Positions 1,767 through 63,464 of a stretch of DNA of 64,000 nucleotides are shown here, piece after piece. How positions within the stretch are numbered: position 1 is the stretch's first letter; each line of letters begins with the position of its first letter. The position numbers and the translations under genes are program-made. The notes beneath the pieces were generated by a model. The model was not told the DNA's origin. It worked only from the letters and a program-made list of their open reading frames with translations, and did no database searches. This DNA comes from an uncultured delta proteobacterium. GTDB lineage: Bacteria; Desulfobacterota; WTBG01. Where the stretch lies: the NCBI GenBank assembly GCA_963793865.1, contig CAWCBP010000002.1, positions 1 to 64,000 of the forward strand, in the 5' to 3' direction.

Positions 1767-1805
1767 AATGGAAAGAGGGCTGAATATCAGCCCCCTTTCT
1801 CCATT
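1767..1805 (-). terminator. Intrinsic terminator of hsp20 copy 1
   Basis: GGGCTGA-ATA-TCAGCCC hairpin with extended pairing. A homologous hairpin follows hsp20 copy 2. Confidence 0.65.
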
Positions 1806-1823: not shown

Positions 1824-2270
1824 TTATTCAATTTTTATTTCGGCGGTTTTCGGCTTTTCCGCTTTCGGAGCAGGCATGGTCACTTCCAGCACGCCGTCTT
1901 TGTACTGGGCGTGTATGTCCTTCTCGGTTACACCCTCAGGTACGCTCAGCGTCCGCTCGAAAGTGCCGTACGACCTTTCAACCCTGTGATAGGTATCCTG
2001 CTTCTCCTCGTGCTCCGACTTCCTTTCTCCCCGCAGCCTCAGATATCCGTTCCGCAGTTCAATATGGATATCCCCTTTCTTCATCCCCGGCAGGTCAGCC
2101 CGCACGACATACTTTCCATCCTTCTCTTCCACGTCAATCGCAGGCCGCCACAGCTTCTCAGGCATATCGGTAAAGAACCCCGTATCGAACCACGTGTCGA
2201 TATCATCGAACCACCGAGTCAGACCCTCAAAAGGTCTCCTATCTCTCCACAGTGTGATTGCCATATTCAT
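1824..2270 (-). CDS. Hsp20/alpha-crystallin small heat-shock protein (copy 1)
   Basis: PAIDVEE, ADLPG, VERSYGTFER and AQYKDGVLEV motifs. GGAGG RBS. Confidence 0.95.
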   Translation of the reverse strand: MNMAITLWRDRRPFEGLTRWFDDIDTWFDTGFFTDMPEKLWRPAIDVEEKDGKYVVRADLPGMKKGDIHIELRNGYLRLRGERKSEHEEKQDTYHRVERSYGTFERTLSVPEGVTEKDIHAQYKDGVLEVTMPAPKAEKPKTAEIKIE

Positions 2271-2402
2271 TCACCTCCCTTTTATATTTGCTCTCTTGTG
2301 TGGCCAAACAATAACCATGGATTAAAGCCGGTCAAGGTTTGAGTGAGGTTGATTTTTATTTTTTTTTGTACCTGATCGACGGGGGTGTGCCGGCCGGGTA
2401 AC

Positions 2403-2596
2403 ACAAAGCCCCTCAAAGGTTTAACCAATGAGGGGCTTTAAGATGAATCCGCAATGCCGTTTAGTTTCTTTGGCTTAAATCTCTCTTTTACTATTGCCCT
2501 ACCAAGGGTTGCTGTAACCAAAGGGCATGTTCACTGCTCTGTTAGATTTTGCCAAATTAACTTATGAACGAACATCACAGACCATTTATCAACTGT
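2403..2596 (-). ncRNA. 6S-like structured RNA (copy 1); core rod 2446-2583, terminator 2405-2439
   Basis: 5' GGUCUGUGAUGUUCGUU pairs with 3' AACGGCAUUGCGGAUU. Internal helices UUUGGC/GCCAAA and AAAUCU/AGAUUU, a central bubble, then UGCCCU/AGGGCA. Has its own promoter and terminator. Conserved paralogue at 62.2 kb. Confidence 0.7.
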
Positions 2597-2602
2597 AGGC
2601 AA

Positions 2603-2630
2603 ATACTAAGCATCAATAAGCCTTAGTCAA
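2603..2630 (-). promoter_or_regulatory. Sigma70-like promoter of 6S-like RNA copy 1
   Basis: TTGACT-N16-TAGTAT, at the same position as TTGACA-N16-TATCTT in copy 2. Confidence 0.55.
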
Positions 2631-2718: not shown

Positions 2719-4035
2719 TCAGGTAACTTTCCCCATAAACATCGGTATTCCAATCCGCTGCCTCCGGTTCTCCCCTTTTAGCAAAAGCTTTTTCCGCTCA
2801 GGGGTATCGCCCCGTTCCCGCTCGTGCTGGGGACGGTCATGGGCCAGAAAACTGCTGCCCAGAAAAACGGTATGCTTGCCGAACCTTTGATTTATCTCAT
2901 CTACGCTTTTGTAGATTTTTTTCATTTCCAGGGCCTTCAGGGCCTGGTTGAACAAATCCAGCTGTTTGATCTTGTCTTCTTCCAGTTTGAAAAGCGCTAT
3001 GCCCGTAGCCCGGTACAGGCAGCGGCTGTCATAGACGGTATCAAAGTGAGCGTCTATGAGCTTGATGATCTCGCTGGGTATGGAGGTGGGGCGGGAAAAC
3101 CGGAGCTCGAGACCTGCGTAGCGGAACGTCTGGAGCTTGAGAAAAAATGCCCCCCTGCCCGCGGCCAGATCATAGCGCCTCAGTTTTATGCAGGCATTCT
3201 CAACATTTTTGGAAAGCTGTGAAAACACAAAGTCACGGTCGCTGGAAGGAGGGGTAAAGGTCTTGACCTTCTGCACCGAGGTGTAGGTGGTTCTCCCTAT
3301 GGTGTCGAGCGGAAACACGAAAATGCCCCTGAGTTCCTGCCAGGTTTCAAAAATGGGCTTGGTAAATCTGCCCTTGACCCACTCCTCGCTTTTCCGGGCA
3401 AACTCAAGCGCGGTACGCACTCCGGCCTTTTTGAGAAAGGCGCTGGTTTGCGGGCCGATGCCCCAGACATCTCCGGCGGGCTTGTGCCGCAGAAATTCAT
3501 GGATCAGATAGCCGGGGATGGCAGTGAAACCCGACGGCTTTTTCCATTTGGAACCGATTTTGGCAATGGTTTTATTCGGGCCGAGCCCGATGGAGAAAGT
3601 GAAGCCCAGCTCCGTATCCACATCCGTTTTTATCTTCTCGGCTATTTTGCAGTACGACAGGCGAAGCGGGCGGCGGAGCCCGGTGATATCGGCGAAGCAC
3701 TCGTCAATGCCATACTCCTCGATTTCCGGCGTGTAGCGGCGCACAATTTCGAAAAACCTTTTGGAGAGCAGGCTGTAGGTTTCATAGTCGGAAGGCAGCA
3801 GGATGGCCCCGGGGCATATCTTTTTTATTTCGGATATGCGCATGCCCCGCTTCACTCCCAGGGCCTTGGCTTCGTAGCTTAAGGAGGCGGCTATGCCGCG
3901 CTCCCTGCCGGTGATTACCGGCCTGCCCTTAAGGGCGGGGTCTCTTGACTGCTCGCAGGCGGCAAAAAAGGCATCCCCGTCAATATGGAGGATGGCCCTC
4001 TCAAATGAGCCGATGGAAAGCGGCTGTTCGTTCAT
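2719..4035 (-). CDS. dinB: Y-family error-prone DNA polymerase (DinB/UmuC-like)
   Basis: HIDGDAFFAACE, SYEAK and GIDECFAD catalytic motifs, VWGIG HhH, QLDLF clamp motif. Confidence 0.9.
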   Translation of the reverse strand: MNEQPLSIGSFERAILHIDGDAFFAACEQSRDPALKGRPVITGRERGIAASLSYEAKALGVKRGMRISEIKKICPGAILLPSDYETYSLLSKRFFEIVRRYTPEIEEYGIDECFADITGLRRPLRLSYCKIAEKIKTDVDTELGFTFSIGLGPNKTIAKIGSKWKKPSGFTAIPGYLIHEFLRHKPAGDVWGIGPQTSAFLKKAGVRTALEFARKSEEWVKGRFTKPIFETWQELRGIFVFPLDTIGRTTYTSVQKVKTFTPPSSDRDFVFSQLSKNVENACIKLRRYDLAAGRGAFFLKLQTFRYAGLELRFSRPTSIPSEIIKLIDAHFDTVYDSRCLYRATGIALFKLEEDKIKQLDLFNQALKALEMKKIYKSVDEINQRFGKHTVFLGSSFLAHDRPQHERERGDTPERKKLLLKGENRRQRIGIPMFMGKVT

Positions 4036-4065
4036 TATAGATTGTTGAAAAAGTGGTTTCAGGTG

Positions 4066-4635
4066 TTAGTAATATTTCCTGATCACCGCGATAACCACGG
4101 CGGCAATTTTCAGCTCGTCTCCGGGAACAATGGTTTTGTACTTCTTATTGGCGGGCTCCAAAACCAGGCGGCCGTTTTGTTTTTTGAGGTACTTCATCGT
4201 CCACTCCTTATCAACCTCGGCAATAACAATATCCCCTTCTTTCGGGCTTCTGTTCCTCTCAACCAGCACCATGTCGCCGGGATGGATACCCGCCTCGATC
4301 ATGGAGTCGCCGCTGACCTTGAGCATGTAGGTGGCCTCTTTATTGGTGATCAGGAACTCGTCAATGGTGATGGTGTCAACCAGCTCCTCTTCCGCGGGCG
4401 AGGGGAACCCCGCCGCTACCGTTCCCAGAATCCTGGTTGCACCCGGGAGCCTTTTGGGAATTAATTTGCCCGCCGCGTCCTTCTTGATGATCCCCCGCGC
4501 AACCAGCCTGTCGACCAGCTTGCTCACGGCGTTGGTGGATTTGAGCCCCGTGATCCGGCCGATTTCGCGAAAGCTTGGCATCCGCTTGTTTTTCTGGTAG
4601 AATTTGTATAATTGCTTTTCGTGATCTTTTTGCAT
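4066..4635 (-). CDS. lexA: LexA-family repressor (wHTH + S24 peptidase)
   Basis: PSFREIG HTH, VAAG cleavage site, VSGDSM catalytic Ser and TMK Lys. Alternative start at 4650. Confidence 0.88.
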   Translation of the reverse strand: MQKDHEKQLYKFYQKNKRMPSFREIGRITGLKSTNAVSKLVDRLVARGIIKKDAAGKLIPKRLPGATRILGTVAAGFPSPAEEELVDTITIDEFLITNKEATYMLKVSGDSMIEAGIHPGDMVLVERNRSPKEGDIVIAEVDKEWTMKYLKKQNGRLVLEPANKKYKTIVPGDELKIAAVVIAVIRKYY

Positions 4636-4665
4636 GGGCTTTCCCTTCATAAGTGTGATAGATTG

Positions 4666-47284: not shown

Positions 47285-48112
47285 TTAAGCAGCATGCTTC
47301 TGTGCGGGTGTCATATACTTCAATGACATATGTAACCGCTCTTCGTTATAGATCTGTATGGCTTCTTTTACCATTCGCTCTGCCACTCGAAAAGATACCA
47401 GTTTCTCCCCCAACTGTAATTCATCCTTCAGTATGCCGTTGACTCGCTCTGCCACGGCATTCTCATACACGTGATTCTCTTCGGTCATACTAATTCGAAC
47501 TCCTTGTTTCTTTAATATTTCCGTATACCCTTTACTACAATATTGGATTCCCCGATCAGAATGGTGTATTAACAGCTTCGGATTCTTCGTCATGCGCAGT
47601 GCCATCTTGAGCGCTCGTACACTTCCCTCAATTGACAAACTCCTGCTTACTGCATACCCCATAATCTTTCGAGAATACCAATCCGTAATCAGTGACAAAT
47701 AACAATACCCTTCCATCGTTTCCAGATACGTTATATCTGCTACAAATACCTGCTCCGGCCTTTGTGCCTCTTCTTCTTTAATCAGATTCTTATATACCTT
47801 CATCCCATGTGCAGATTGAGTCGTCCGTACATATTTCCTCTTTCTCTTTACCAACAAATCCCTCTCTCGCAATATCCTCAATAACCGATCCCGTCCAATC
47901 GTACACTCACCAGCTCCCAGCATCTTGTGGAGCTTTCTGCCTCCTACCCGCGGCTGCCGCTTCCGTATCCTTCGTACCTCATCCATCACTGCTGCTTCTT
48001 CCACCCTTCGTCTTCCCTCAATCACTATCCGCTTGTAATACCCCTGCCGACTGTATCCGTATGCTTCACAAAGCTTTCCTATCCCTGCTCCTTTTTGATT
48101 GCCTCGCCCCAC
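47285..48112 (-). CDS. IS3 transposase OrfB (DDE)
   Basis: VADITY, HHSDRGIQY, ENAVAER and YNEERLH motifs. Confidence 0.92.
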   Translation of the reverse strand: MGRGNQKGAGIGKLCEAYGYSRQGYYKRIVIEGRRRVEEAAVMDEVRRIRKRQPRVGGRKLHKMLGAGECTIGRDRLLRILRERDLLVKRKRKYVRTTQSAHGMKVYKNLIKEEEAQRPEQVFVADITYLETMEGYCYLSLITDWYSRKIMGYAVSRSLSIEGSVRALKMALRMTKNPKLLIHHSDRGIQYCSKGYTEILKKQGVRISMTEENHVYENAVAERVNGILKDELQLGEKLVSFRVAERMVKEAIQIYNEERLHMSLKYMTPAQKHAA

Positions 48113-55256: not shown

Positions 55257-55302
55257 TGGTGGGCCGTGCAGGAGTCGAACCTGCGACCTACTGATTAAGA
55301 GT
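55257..55302 (-). repeat. 46 bp direct repeat of the tRNA-Lys 3' end (att core)
   Basis: Identical to 63389-63434. Confidence 0.95.
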
Positions 55303-56345: not shown

Positions 56346-56422
56346 TTACAGCTTGTTTTGGCTTGTTATGGTAGCAAAATGGTAGCAGAAAAGGGGCTGG
56401 GATTATTCCCGGCTCTTTTGTT
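56346..56422. repeat. 77 bp direct repeat, copy 1 (contains tandem TGGTAGCA)
   Basis: Near-identical to 57791-57867. Confidence 0.9.
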
Positions 56423-56756
56423 GTTAAACGAACCGCCCCAGGATACTCAACCTGCTCTTAGATCATACCCAAGGCAAGCCCCCAGATCAGATCCATCAGG
56501 AGCAGGTGACGTTCGTTATGCACGTCAATAGGAATACTGATGCTCAGGATGCAGTGGTGGTTGATGATGGGCATAAGTATCTGCCAGAGGGAGAGGGGTA
56601 ATAAAGGCAGGCGCTGGTTTGACCCCTGCCCGTAGCATACTAACCAAGCAAATAATCGCGTGGATTTTTATGTTTGCTGATCTCTTTAATTTCTTCCTTA
56701 TTTCCCCGACTCCTCCCGTTAAGATCGACAATACGATACTGTCAATTGGTTTAAAA

Positions 56757-59617: not shown

Positions 59618-60886
59618 TTACAGATCCTGAAATAAACTACCAGCCCTCCAGTCATCTTCACCTGTAGCATTATGGGACATCCCACCACTTACGCTGGAAG
59701 TACCCCCGCTTGCTGTATTAGCAAACCCACCGCTCACGCTGGCAGAAGTGCCGCTTGCTAAATTTAAATTACCCCCGCTTACACTGGCAGAATCCCCGCT
59801 TGCTGTATTATAAAACCCGCCGCTTACACTGGCAAAACTATAAGTAGCCGCATTCCCAGATCCCCCGCTCACGCTGGTAGACCCACCGCTCGCTGTATTT
59901 TCAGAACCACCACTTACACTTGCATACCATGCACTTGCTGTATTACTCAGCCCCCCACTCACACTGGCCCACTGACCGATTGATTCATTGGAATGCCCGC
60001 CACTCACACTGGCATTATTGCCACTTGCTGTATTACTTGCTCCACCGCTCACACTTGACCTATCGCCGCTTGCTGTATTAGCATTTCCTCCGCTCACGCA
60101 CGCATTCTGCCCAATAGTGTGGTCTGTAAGGTCCGGATCTCCTGCTGTGTTATAAACTCCTCCCAGTACCGCTGAATAGTGGCCAAATGCTTTATTTCCA
60201 TAATCTGCAGTGTCGCCACCGCCTCCGCCCACAAAGGAATAATCACCGCTGGCCACATTATACCTGCCACCGCTTACGCTGGAACTTTGGCTGCTTGCCG
60301 TATTATTGGCTCCACCGCTCACACTAGAAGCCTGACTGCTTGCTGTATTATTATTGCCACCGCTCACACTGGCATAAGGCCCTGAAACAGTGTTCCAACG
60401 GCCTGCTACCAGCCCGCCATAGGAAGCATAGTTATGGCGTGAGCCGACCACAATATTATGGGATCCGGTGCGATCATCAGTACCATCATTGCGAATCTCG
60501 TTATATCCTACAATCAGGTTACCCCGGCCATTGACTGTTCCGCTTGTATTCCCACTCCCACTAACAATCTGCACATTCACTCCGCTAAACCGTATCGTAT
60601 CCTGTCCTTCCACTATAATCCTGGTCACATTGGCCAGCAGCGCTTCAAGCTGTGCAATCCTTATTTCTAACTGTTCGGCTGTCTCACACGCTATCACGGG
60701 GCAGGGATCTAACAATGAACTTCTACCAAAATCTGATTTAAACACAAAGGCATCCGTTCCATCCTGGTCAGAATCGTTATCAAAATTGCCTTCACAATAG
60801 TCAACTGGTTGTGCCATGACAGGAGATACCGATAGTGAAAAAATAAAAACTGCTGTAACTGCTAAAACTACCGTTAGTCTTTTCAT
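59618..60886 (-). CDS. Secreted adhesin-like protein: dockerin/EF-hand-like module, coiled coil and 14-aa ASVSGG..NTASG repeats
   Basis: Many 42 bp tandem repeat units resembling YadA-head-like beta-roll repeats. Confidence 0.8.
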   Translation of the reverse strand: MKRLTVVLAVTAVFIFSLSVSPVMAQPVDYCEGNFDNDSDQDGTDAFVFKSDFGRSSLLDPCPVIACETAEQLEIRIAQLEALLANVTRIIVEGQDTIRFSGVNVQIVSGSGNTSGTVNGRGNLIVGYNEIRNDGTDDRTGSHNIVVGSRHNYASYGGLVAGRWNTVSGPYASVSGGNNNTASSQASSVSGGANNTASSQSSSVSGGRYNVASGDYSFVGGGGGDTADYGNKAFGHYSAVLGGVYNTAGDPDLTDHTIGQNACVSGGNANTASGDRSSVSGGASNTASGNNASVSGGHSNESIGQWASVSGGLSNTASAWYASVSGGSENTASGGSTSVSGGSGNAATYSFASVSGGFYNTASGDSASVSGGNLNLASGTSASVSGGFANTASGGTSSVSGGMSHNATGEDDWRAGSLFQDL

Positions 60887-61484
60887 AGTCTTACCCTCCT
60901 TCAAATAAAAAATCCCCACTTCATTCCATGACCACCACGGCCAAAGAAAAAGCGGGGTTCTTCTCATATGATGCCAGTACTCACCGTATTTCCCCCTCAC
61001 AGATACAATGTATTATAATTTAATCAGAAAAGGTTCATTTTTTCAAGGACAATAAAACAGCCCCCCAGCCTGCTAGTGGCCAAGGGGCTATTTTATGAAG
61101 GGTTTAATTAATGAGGATCAGGGGTGCCTACCGGAAGGTAGTGCGGAAGAATAAAGGCAGGAGCCGTTTTGGCCCCTGCCTTAGTTGACATGCTGGAAGA
61201 TATGGCTACTGTCAAGTCAGGTATTGTTCGGGACAGATTTGCTATAGAACTGCAGCAGTTGATTCTATTTAACCTTGTTCATTTGATCCTGGAGTTTTTC
61301 CTTCTCAACCTTTTCACCGGCAACCTGCCGTTGAGGTGCGAGTCAGGTTCTCACTCCAAACTTTGGCAATATGTAAGCCTGCAATAACAGCCAACCCCCG
61401 ACTATTAAAACCATAAATAAAAGTGCTTTCATTCCAAACACTCCTTTTTACCCATGCACACTGCATGCGTTTTTGGTTATATGA

Positions 61485-61512
61485 AAAGAGGGCTGAAATT
61501 AAGCCCTCTTCT
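61485..61512 (-). terminator. Terminator of hsp20 copy 2
   Basis: AAGAGGGCT-GAAATTA-AGCCCTCTT hairpin. Confidence 0.7.
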
Positions 61513-61535
61513 CCGTATTATGAACCACCAATAAC

Positions 61536-61976
61536 TTACTCAATTTTTATTTCGGTGGTTTTTGGCTCTTCTACCTTCGGAGTTGGAATTGTCAGTTCCA
61601 GCACTCCGTCTTTGTAGTTTGCGTGTATGTCTTTCTCAGTTACACCCTCCGGCACACAGAGTGTCCTCTCAAACGTGCCATAGGTTCTTTCAACTCTATG
61701 ATAATTATCTTTCTTCTCCTCGTTCTCGGACTTCCGCTCTCCTCTGAGTGTCAGGTATCCATTGTGCAGTTCAATGTGGATATCCTCTTTCTTCATCCCA
61801 GGTAAGTCTGCCCGCACCATAAACTTCCCATCCTTTTCCTCAATGTCGATTGCGGGTCGCCACATCGTATCGGGCATGTCGGTAAAGAACCCCGTGTCAA
61901 CCCATGTATCAATATCATCAAACCACTTCGTTAAACCCTCAAAAGGGCTTCTTTGTTTCCATAGTGTGATTGCCAT
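61536..61976 (-). CDS. Hsp20 small heat-shock protein (copy 2)
   Basis: Close paralogue of 1824-2270; AGGAGG RBS. Confidence 0.95.
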   Translation of the reverse strand: MAITLWKQRSPFEGLTKWFDDIDTWVDTGFFTDMPDTMWRPAIDIEEKDGKFMVRADLPGMKKEDIHIELHNGYLTLRGERKSENEEKKDNYHRVERTYGTFERTLCVPEGVTEKDIHANYKDGVLELTIPTPKVEEPKTTEIKIE

Positions 61977-62127
61977 AGTAAACACCTCCTTATATGACAT
62001 CAGTTTTTCTTAAGTTAACACAAGCATAACCATTAATTGAAGGCAGTCAATGTTTGTGAAGAACGGTTTTTGTGATGCGTCAATAATGCCTTCTTACCAT
62101 TAGTTTTGTTTTATGTGGTATCGGGAC

Positions 62128-62324
62128 ATAAAAACCCCTCAAAGGCGAAAGCAATGAGGGGATTTAAATTTGGTCCGCAAATGCCGTTTCGTTCTTTGGC
62201 TTCCAACTCTGATCTCAATCTCTTGCCCTACGAAGAGTTACAGTAACCAAAGGGCATTTTCACTATTGTGTTAGATCCGCCAAATTGACTTGTCAACGAA
62301 CACCGCAGACCGTTATGACTAAGT
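62128..62324 (-). ncRNA. 6S-like structured RNA (copy 2); core 62172-62311, terminator 62135-62161
   Basis: 5' GGUCUGCGGUGUUCGUU pairs with 3' AACGGCAUUUGCGGACC; UUUGGC/GCCAAA and UGCCCU/AGGGCA are conserved. Promoter TTGACA-N16-TATCTT at 62331-62358. Confidence 0.7.
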
Positions 62325-62708
62325 GGTTAAAAGATAACCATCATTACAGTTTTGTCAAGAGCGTGCCGCAAGTTTCAGAAAGGCTACTCAGGTAAGCAGA
62401 AAGATTCCCACACCCTGGGTTAACCCACTGAGCAGGTACAGCAGCAGCAGGTGGTATTCATTATGAACTTAAGGAGGTAGAATGAGGTTCAGGATGCTGA
62501 GGTAATAGACGGGGATCAGAAGTATCTACCAGAAGGAGAGGGGTAATAAAGGCAGGAGCTGTTTGACCCCTACCTTTCATTTTGCCCTTTCAAATGTGCT
62601 ATTGTCCGCCCCGGACGGTAAGATGCACAAGTAATTGAAAATCTTGCTGTGGTACTAAAAGTGTGGTAACGTTCAGATTATACACATAAAACAATCTTTA
62701 ATAAAGGA

Positions 62709-63388: not shown

Positions 63389-63464
<76 letters not shown>

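Follow-up and report, generated by a model that had tools for sequence, protein, structure and literature searches.

6S RNA, treated as nearly universal, silences RNA polymerase as an imitation of an open promoter. Its gene usually lies downstream of zapA in proteobacteria, and Bacillus subtilis carries a pair of paralogues, 6S-1 and 6S-2. Here we analyse two copies of a short RNA gene, each standing upstream of a gene for an Hsp20-type small heat-shock protein (hsp20), in a 64,000-nucleotide (nt) stretch of DNA from an uncultured delta proteobacterium (GenBank assembly GCA_963793865.1, contig CAWCBP010000002.1, positions 1 to 64,000), which we call the window. By sequence comparison, this is a natural short-armed RNA of the 6S type that the standard 6S model misses and that has been multiplied and tied to a heat-shock gene in one family of bacteria.

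Ms1 RNA of actinobacteria is also 6S-like and is reported to bind core polymerase (PMC9130861). Truncated 6S-1 RNAs that retain the central bubble and two short arms are reported to complete the 6S cycle in vitro, with roughly tenfold lower affinity (PMC8876501).

Two modules with one order of parts

The preliminary description of the window had claimed two RNA-hsp20 modules of the same order, and both lie where it placed them, on the minus strand (module B, 62358-61483; module A, 2630-1771). Each runs, in identical order, from a sigma-70-type promoter through a rod-shaped RNA of about 146 nt, a terminator and a second promoter to hsp20 and a final terminator. The promoter form that it had proposed also holds: in pattern scans all four read TTGAC(A/T/C), a 16-nt spacer and TAnnnT. 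In the features below, R1 is a covariance model of the new RNA (as is R2, used further on), RF00013 is the 6S RNA model of Rfam and PF00011 is the HSP20 (alpha-crystallin domain) model, with a curated cut-off of 20.8 bits that both proteins pass.

Module B
62331..62358, minus strand: promoter of RNA copy B, TTGACA, 16-nt spacer, TATCTT (pattern scan, 10/12 matches)
62167..62312, minus strand: RNA copy B, a 6S-like rod made up of P1 (closing stem), P2-P4 (helices), a large internal loop and P5-P6 (short apical hairpin)
62130..62161, minus strand: intrinsic terminator of RNA copy B, a G+C-rich hairpin and U tract (sequence reading)
62023..62050, minus strand: promoter of hsp20 copy B, TTGACT, 16-nt spacer, TATGCT (pattern scan)
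61536..61976, minus strand: hsp20 copy B, a small heat-shock protein of 146 amino acids (PF00011, 93.1 bits)
about 61483..61510, minus strand: terminator 3' of hsp20 copy B, a hairpin and U tract (sequence reading)

Module A
2603..2630, minus strand: promoter of RNA copy A, TTGACT, 16-nt spacer, TAGTAT (pattern scan)
2441..2584, minus strand: RNA copy A, a 6S-like rod (R1, 156.4 bits; RF00013, 29.0 bits)
2401..2439, minus strand: intrinsic terminator of RNA copy A (sequence and fold)
2308..2335, minus strand: promoter of hsp20 copy A, TTGACC, 16-nt spacer, TATTGT (pattern scan; conserved block)
1824..2264, minus strand: hsp20 copy A, 146 amino acids from the start common to copy B (PF00011, 90.1 bits)
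1771..1799, minus strand: terminator 3' of hsp20 copy A, a 13-pair stem (terminator scan)

The two Hsp20 proteins are 82% identical, and orthologues of copy A within the genus share 85-96% identity; an in-frame ATG two codons upstream, at 2270, would give copy A 148 amino acids. RNA copy B scores 133 bits with R1 and 116.1 bits with R2. Its relatives were sought in one uncultured Thermodesulfobacteriota class of 42 genomes, in which we call the window's genome G000 and the window's family f1. A promoter-like block recurs in most homologues of the f1 type, and in the alignment the -35 block of the copy B promoter is conserved in most of them; the hairpin of the RNA-B terminator is preserved through compensatory changes. 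These conserved signals divide each module into two separate predicted transcription units, one for the RNA and one for hsp20.

To compare the modules, we divided a single global alignment of A and B into segments. Identity is 76% in the RNA rod, 78% in the RNA terminator, 79% in the hsp20 coding sequence, 67% and 72% in the two promoters and 67% in the terminator that follows hsp20. It is 45% in the spacer between the RNA terminator and the second promoter, 38% in the upstream flank and 26% in the flank beyond the hsp20 terminator. Functional parts at 67-79% thus contrast with spacers and flanks at 26-45%, in agreement with the earlier proposal of a duplicated module whose working parts were kept while its spacers decayed. 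Because the RNA (76%) is better conserved than the flanking spacers, that observation stands. The paired segments quoted in the preliminary description are also present, and the differences between copies keep the pairs (G-U to G-C, U-G to C-G).

An uncatalogued RNA family with a covarying rod

BLAST and covariance-model searches place the RNA at four sites in G000: copies A and B in the window, a full copy on contig 12 that has no hsp20, and a core-only fragment on contig 8. The fragment (512308-512392; L004:1493-1575) spans about model positions 32-115, keeps the inner helices, internal loop and apical hairpin without the closing stem or terminator, and sits between genes for a GNAT acetyltransferase and a Lyase_1-family (fumarate-lyase type) protein. 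Genome G009 holds short relatives of another kind, of 83 and 98 nt (L040 and L041; 35-42 bits), which keep the closing stem and have no apical domain. A 31-letter degenerate motif drawn from the invariant apical hairpin, searched against species-genome and metagenome collections, found 5 species-genome loci, all in metagenome-assembled genomes labelled Thermodesulfobacteriota or 'delta proteobacterium', and 15 metagenome loci.

The predicted fold is a rod. A closing stem of 16 pairs leads into three short inner helices, beyond which come a large internal loop and, at the tip, a short hairpin. The internal loop, between P4 and P5, leaves about 17 nt unpaired on its 5' side and 13-16 nt on its 3' side. 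The apical hairpin is the best conserved part of the RNA, nearly invariant even at its unpaired bases. Versions in family f6 are slightly longer (155-178 nt), and in minimum-free-energy folds the 3' strand of the internal loop forms one more small hairpin in most of them. A 9-codon frame across the apical hairpin was considered and dropped, as several homologues have no start codon and the variable base falls on the first codon position.

Pairing is retained while sequence changes. In 24 close sequences, 92.9% of alignment cells are paired, against at most 42.6% when the partners are slid, and both sides have changed in 12 of 42 pairs. Across 24 class-wide sequences, 87.2% of cells are paired (at most 42.9% with partners slid), both sides have changed in 26 of the 42 pairs and the covariation score is 0.323, compared with no more than 0.082 in slid controls; these alignments were fitted to the model and so favour the structure, a bias that the slid controls share only in part and that counts against our interpretation. 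An alignment from MAFFT alone misaligned the 3' half of the rod, with loss of the middle helices in RNAalifold, and model-guided alignments were used instead. This is, as judged from its aligned homologues, an uncatalogued RNA family with strong covariation support.

A terminator hairpin follows the RNA in every homologue with enough 3' sequence, loci without hsp20 included, and in a more distant group of homologues the terminator sequence itself has been replaced. The RNA is, by these signals, a predicted independent gene. At one distant homologue (L020, 1391-1440), a sigma-54-like TGGCAC-N5-TGC, recognized by pattern only, replaces the TTGAC-type promoter, and a gene for a papain-family protease comes after the RNA. 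Directly 3' of the RNA in genome G018 (L046:1641-1740) there is a sub-threshold match to the Rfam 'trpB ncRNA motif', at 44.6 bits with a cut-off of 59.

Kinship with 6S RNA

Profile searches connect the new RNA to 6S in both directions. Scanned alone, copy B has RF00013 as its best match (24.8 bits, E 0.0016) and copy A has it as its only Rfam match (29.0 bits, E 0.00016). Both alignments run end to end (model positions 1-187) with the inner helices aligned, and cmscan places both strands of the closing stem near the RF00013 consensus with high posterior probability. In the reverse direction, we ran R2, built from 24 members of the new family only, without filters on eight loci with canonical 6S genes (23 kilobases (kb)). 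This test does not depend on the Rfam model. R2 recovered all 8 of the 8 canonical genes: each was its highest-scoring hit in its locus, matched over the full length in the correct orientation with 15.9-34.5 bits, and no other match in these loci went above 8.7 bits. The claim of a 6S-like RNA is therefore borne out from both sides.

The main difference lies at the apex. In the R2 alignment the apical variable part measures 19 nt, compared with 59 nt in canonical 6S, and the whole apical part of the new RNA (P5, P6 and loops) comes to about 33 nt. The truncated 6S-1 constructs, reported to work in vitro, agree with the idea that a short apical arm may be enough (PMC8876501). Since the profiles match end to end both ways and a shorter apical part is the main difference, we read the RNA as, very probably, a diverged, short-armed branch of the 6S family.

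Several observations weigh against this reading. Both copies fall below the curated RF00013 gathering cut-off (24.8 and 29.0 bits against 46.4), and at the Rfam gathering threshold the window has no 6S match. An Rfam scan of 61400-62600 at E up to 10 does not list 6S, and an RF00013 search of the entire genome at E up to 10 does not match the short RNAs. The match appeared only when about 200 nt were scanned alone, and once in the class search; detection therefore depends on search filters. Only the closing stem and inner helices align well among the 187 model positions, and the apical domain, being different and short, may not offer a '-35-like' contact. E-values from R1 and R2 are rough, owing to a shortened calibration, and another role for the highly conserved bases outside the helices, as a seed or as the binding site of a protein, is conceivable.

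This last point leads to a different account, in which the copies would be sibling small RNAs that base-pair with messenger RNAs, their seed being the invariant apical GCCCUUUGGU...GUAGGGC and their likeness to 6S a shared or convergent closing stem. Such RNAs could well have their own promoter, a U-tailed terminator and several copies per genome, as found here; the apical hairpin is the most conserved element, unpaired bases included, and the Rfam 6S score is below cut-off. A long rod kept by covariation (26 of 42 pairs) is unusual for seed-type small RNAs, however, and the 6S profile matches end to end in both directions. We consider this account unlikely.

The preliminary description had proposed a check for a separate canonical ssrS in the genome. 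One is present on contig 10, at 93.5 bits and directly after zapB-zapA, and the RNAs of the window are therefore additional paralogues. None of the new RNAs occupies the zapA position, and their neighbourhoods are varied.

Distribution across the class

R2 detected the RNA in 25 of the 42 genomes, including 17 of the 21 of high quality (at least 90% complete, at most 5% contaminated). By family, the counts are:

Family f1, besides G000: RNA in 6 of 10 genomes
Family f6: RNA in 15 of 17 genomes, 1-2 copies each
Family f4: RNA in 2 of 4 genomes
Family f2: RNA in 1 of 8 genomes
Family f3: RNA in 0 of 1 genome
Family f5: RNA in 0 of 1 genome

Outside the window's family the RNA is mostly present once or twice per genome. 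Of 151 genomes sampled evenly from the phylum, searched with stricter filters and 20 candidates scored per genome, 6 gave a match: 5 of this class and 1 outside (46.7 bits).

RF00013 exceeds its cut-off in 8 of the 42 genomes, all of them in f1, and five f1 genomes (G000, G002, G003, G007 and G010) hold the short RNA and canonical 6S together. Five genomes of f6, f4 and f2 with zapA gave no Rfam match at E up to 1 beside that gene. Five high-quality f6 and f4 genomes gave no RF00013 match at E up to 10 except one of 15.5 bits. Outside f1, the short form was the only 6S-like RNA detected, and it may be the main 6S in most of the class.

These counts bear on whether a 6S descendant has acquired a new partner, such as core polymerase (as for Ms1), an alternative sigma holoenzyme or another protein, with the apical hairpin as specificity element. 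An apical domain about 40 nt shorter than that of canonical 6S in the same genome (19 versus 59 nt), the near invariance of its hairpin and the coexistence of both forms in the five f1 genomes could all be understood in this way. That no canonical 6S was detected in f6, f4 and f2, by contrast, is as expected if the short form has the normal role of 6S in those families, and truncated 6S-1 is reported to work still with sigma-A holoenzyme in vitro (PMC8876501). A change of partner thus seems doubtful.

Linkage to hsp20

We assessed linkage in 24 non-redundant close loci (five loci of the genome collection, L011-L015, were left out as duplicates of included loci). hsp20 lies about 150 nt past the RNA terminator in 11 of them; another 10 extend downstream for 800 nt or more and lack the gene, and 3 are too short to judge. 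The preliminary description had made its proposal depend on homologues being linked to hsp20, and 11 of the 21 informative close loci are.

The linked loci fall into at least three neighbourhoods. In the first, a Y-family polymerase gene, the RNA and hsp20 follow one another in copy A and six relatives from the genus and related metagenomes, with an FMN reductase gene after hsp20 in 4 of these 7 loci. The second is the copy-B type, in three different surroundings. The third, in genome G007, consists of two rubrerythrin genes, the RNA and hsp20. G000 has five genes of the hsp20 family, and the RNA stands upstream only of the two that are 82% alike. At locus L025, the RNA shares 97% identity with the contig-12 type, compared with just 81% for copy B, and the hsp20 that follows is 99% identical to that of copy B. 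A contig-12-type RNA is thus combined with a copy-B hsp20; therefore, RNA paralogues have been exchanged and the arrangement kept.

Other counts go the opposite way. hsp20 is missing at 10 of the 21 informative close loci, and it occurs within 1.5 kb at none of 18 wider-class loci (one of the 18 duplicates a close locus). With linkage missing at many loci, hsp20 is therefore not needed for the function of the RNA. Many loci, moreover, come from closely related populations, and the independent cases are fewer than the rows. RNA-hsp20 adjacency is repeatedly kept in the window's family and is not general to the RNA family. Of the selection for linkage that had been claimed, the recurrence of the pair in several neighbourhoods stands; its reach shrinks to the window's family (11/21 close, 0/18 wider), and the pair is not in general held together by selection.

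The same layout of promoter, structured RNA, terminator and gene is that of an attenuator, and RNA thermometers are known before small heat-shock genes (PMC3669281 and PMC4152365). The RNA might accordingly be a leader that acts in cis, as an attenuator or a thermosensor, with hsp20 expression set by regulated read-through at the RNA terminator. We consider this very unlikely: the RNA and its terminator occur with no hsp20 at 10 of the 21 informative close loci and at all 18 of the wider ones, and a separate hsp20 promoter block is kept in 11 of 11 linked loci, although the spacer around it is not. Beyond the two hexamers, this promoter also resembles the RNA promoter of its own locus.

In public RNA data, contigs from four libraries, at 90-99% likeness, cover hsp20 (about 61440-62017). 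No contig of these libraries lies over the RNA gene, and such contigs cannot show absence, strand or transcript ends. At most, they suggest faintly that transcription of hsp20 begins close to the hsp20 promoter.

Genome context and mobility

The two modules occupy different kinds of surroundings. Copy A lies in the order lexA, Y-family polymerase, RNA, hsp20, FMN reductase; a lexA-like repressor gene and a gene for a Y-family (UmuC/DinB-type) polymerase lie at 2719-4650, directly upstream of the RNA. The position of the polymerase gene beside RNA A is conserved across the genus, which puts copy A in conserved chromosomal synteny. Module B lies inside a variable segment of 8.1 kb between a transfer RNA (tRNA) gene and a repeat of its 3' part:

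63389..63464, minus strand: tRNA-Lys (CTT), right border of the variable segment with module B (ARAGORN, Rfam)
55257..55302: exact 46-nt direct repeat (100% identity, repeat family D20) of the tRNA-Lys 3' part (63389-63434), an att-like left border

Together, the tRNA-Lys gene and the 46-nt repeat are a sequence signature of insertion at a tRNA gene. The preliminary description had spoken of a tRNA island. ARAGORN and Rfam find one tRNA only in the 64-kb window, so that what remains of that claim is the tRNA-Lys gene with a repeat of its 3' part. G+C content within the segment ranges from 0.39 to 0.48 per kb, compared with 0.483 for the window. Genes of the segment encode proteins that look exported and carry Lcl_C and EF-hand domains; no integrase family was found among 8 frames scanned between 55.3 and 63.4 kb. 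An IS3-type transposase gene lies outside the bounded segment (47285-48112), and the adjoining 43-55 kb contain HEPN/nucleotidyltransferase and PIN-like pairs and many repeated intergenic blocks.

Travel on mobile DNA, as the preliminary description had claimed, applies at most to copy B, through its tRNA-Lys gene and 46-nt repeat, and not to copy A, which sits in genus-wide synteny; plasmid and phage collections held no match to the RNA. The term 'mobile cassette' is partly supported: the support covers the copying of B into a variable region and does not reach the pair in general. The position of module B in a repeat-rich variable region, with partial copies on contig 8 of G000 and in G009, could also suggest a repeated or mobile sequence that has no function and folds by chance. 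Compensatory changes, class-wide presence at 1-2 copies per genome and a conserved promoter and terminator make this extremely improbable.

Between 43000 and 64000 the window is dense with repeated intergenic blocks (families D2-D17), among them hairpin-bearing units at 56600, 57949, 61150 and 62545. A 77-nt unit at 56346 and 57791 matches, as its reverse complement, sequence 3' of the contig-12-type RNA terminator. A repeated block of some 150 nt, whose direction of transcription leads away from the RNA gene, occurs upstream of copy B (62409-62564), upstream of the contig-12 copy (L002:1307-1534) and at 56464-56619, with 73% identity. The contig-12 version includes a frame of 27 codons that ends in ...VIDGEQKYLPKGEEE; the same frame in copy B has no start codon. 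Within the tRNA-bounded segment, a 460-codon frame at 59618-61000 is built from a 45-nt unit repeated about twelve times in tandem, which gives 15-residue repeats; the frame has a weak beta-roll match and adjoins genes for two Lcl_C-domain proteins and an EF-hand protein.

A proposed mechanism

We regard as fairly probable a combined reading in which the RNA is a 6S-type mimic of an open promoter, is released through product-RNA synthesis and is probably co-regulated with hsp20. The primary transcript would be about 195 nt long, comprising the rod of about 146 nt and the terminator hairpin. By homology with 6S, the RNA would, as an imitation of an open promoter, lodge in the active-site cleft of the housekeeping RNA polymerase holoenzyme. 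Release would follow, again by homology, when the enzyme uses the conserved 5' strand beside the internal loop, GGCAAAAUCU, as the template for a short product RNA; this segment is nearly invariant across the class, and the product RNAs would be complementary to the 5' strand around GGCAAAAUCUAAC. When we blocked the presumed product-RNA template and refolded 24 homologues, no release rearrangement common to the family emerged. An alternative pairing of GCCAAAG in the 3' strand with the apical CUUUGG arises in only three sequences, all from the window's genus.

The hsp20 unit would supply an Hsp20-type chaperone from its own promoter, of the same architecture as the RNA promoter. Duplication and reshuffling in the window's family have affected the RNA gene and this subfamily of hsp20 together. 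The two units of each module are probably co-regulated. When cells are stressed or stop growing, the look-alike promoters might turn on both products at once, a protein holdase and an RNA that damps polymerase, a step that we put forward loosely.

A more specific extension of the 6S-type reading is tentative. Here the short form would be the main or only 6S-type regulator in most families of the class. In the window's family it would be an extra, multiplied paralogue, wired by twin promoters to hsp20 as a stress cassette that damps transcription and holds unfolded proteins, and its apical hairpin may aim at a polymerase form other than that bound by canonical 6S.

Comparison with known systems

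Within this class, the standard 6S model finds 8 of 42 genomes, and the short form, in 25 of 42, fills much of the gap. It would be a natural counterpart of the laboratory shortening of 6S arms. If the RNA binds polymerase, it marks a natural minimum for an RNA that mimics a promoter, and one genome would hold three to four 6S-type genes. Binding would also open a testable link between global damping of transcription and protein-folding stress, which is suggested because the RNA and hsp20 were copied together and have look-alike promoters. If it does not bind polymerase, it would still be a well-supported new structured RNA family for Rfam. A full-text literature search, whose scope did not extend to the surveys of Barrick 2005 and Wehner 2014, returned no description of the short form or of a link between 6S and hsp20.

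RNA thermometers, such as the ROSE-like elements before ibpA and the leaders of cyanobacterial hsp17, resemble the modules in placing a structured RNA upstream of an hsp20-type gene. Thermometers lie in the leader of the messenger RNA and mask its ribosome-binding site. In the modules, unlike thermometers, the RNA and hsp20 have a terminator and a second promoter between them, and some loci have the RNA and no hsp20.

Ms1, like the new RNA, is a 6S-like rod that ordinary 6S searches miss, and its description indicates that 6S-like RNAs can bind another form of polymerase. It belongs to a different phylum, and our Rfam scans gave no sequence or profile match between the new RNA and Ms1. The engineered truncated 6S-1, with its central bubble and short arms (PMC8876501), has the shape that the new RNA approaches apically. 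Those molecules are laboratory constructs of a Bacillus RNA, whereas the new RNA is natural and keeps a full-length closing arm.

The closest comparison is with 6S RNA itself (SsrS; RF00013). The two share a rod and a near-consensus closing stem, and in both the inner helices give way to a large internal loop; some Firmicutes are known to have more than one 6S copy per genome (PMC8414754). Polymerase binding by the new RNA, unlike that of 6S, is predicted from homology. Its apical arm is about 40 nt shorter than that of 6S and bears an invariant hairpin of its own; it has its own terminator, lies away from the zapA-ssrS position and scores below the Rfam cut-off. Unlike 6S RNA, it reaches up to three full copies and one fragment in a single genome, and in one family it adjoins hsp20.

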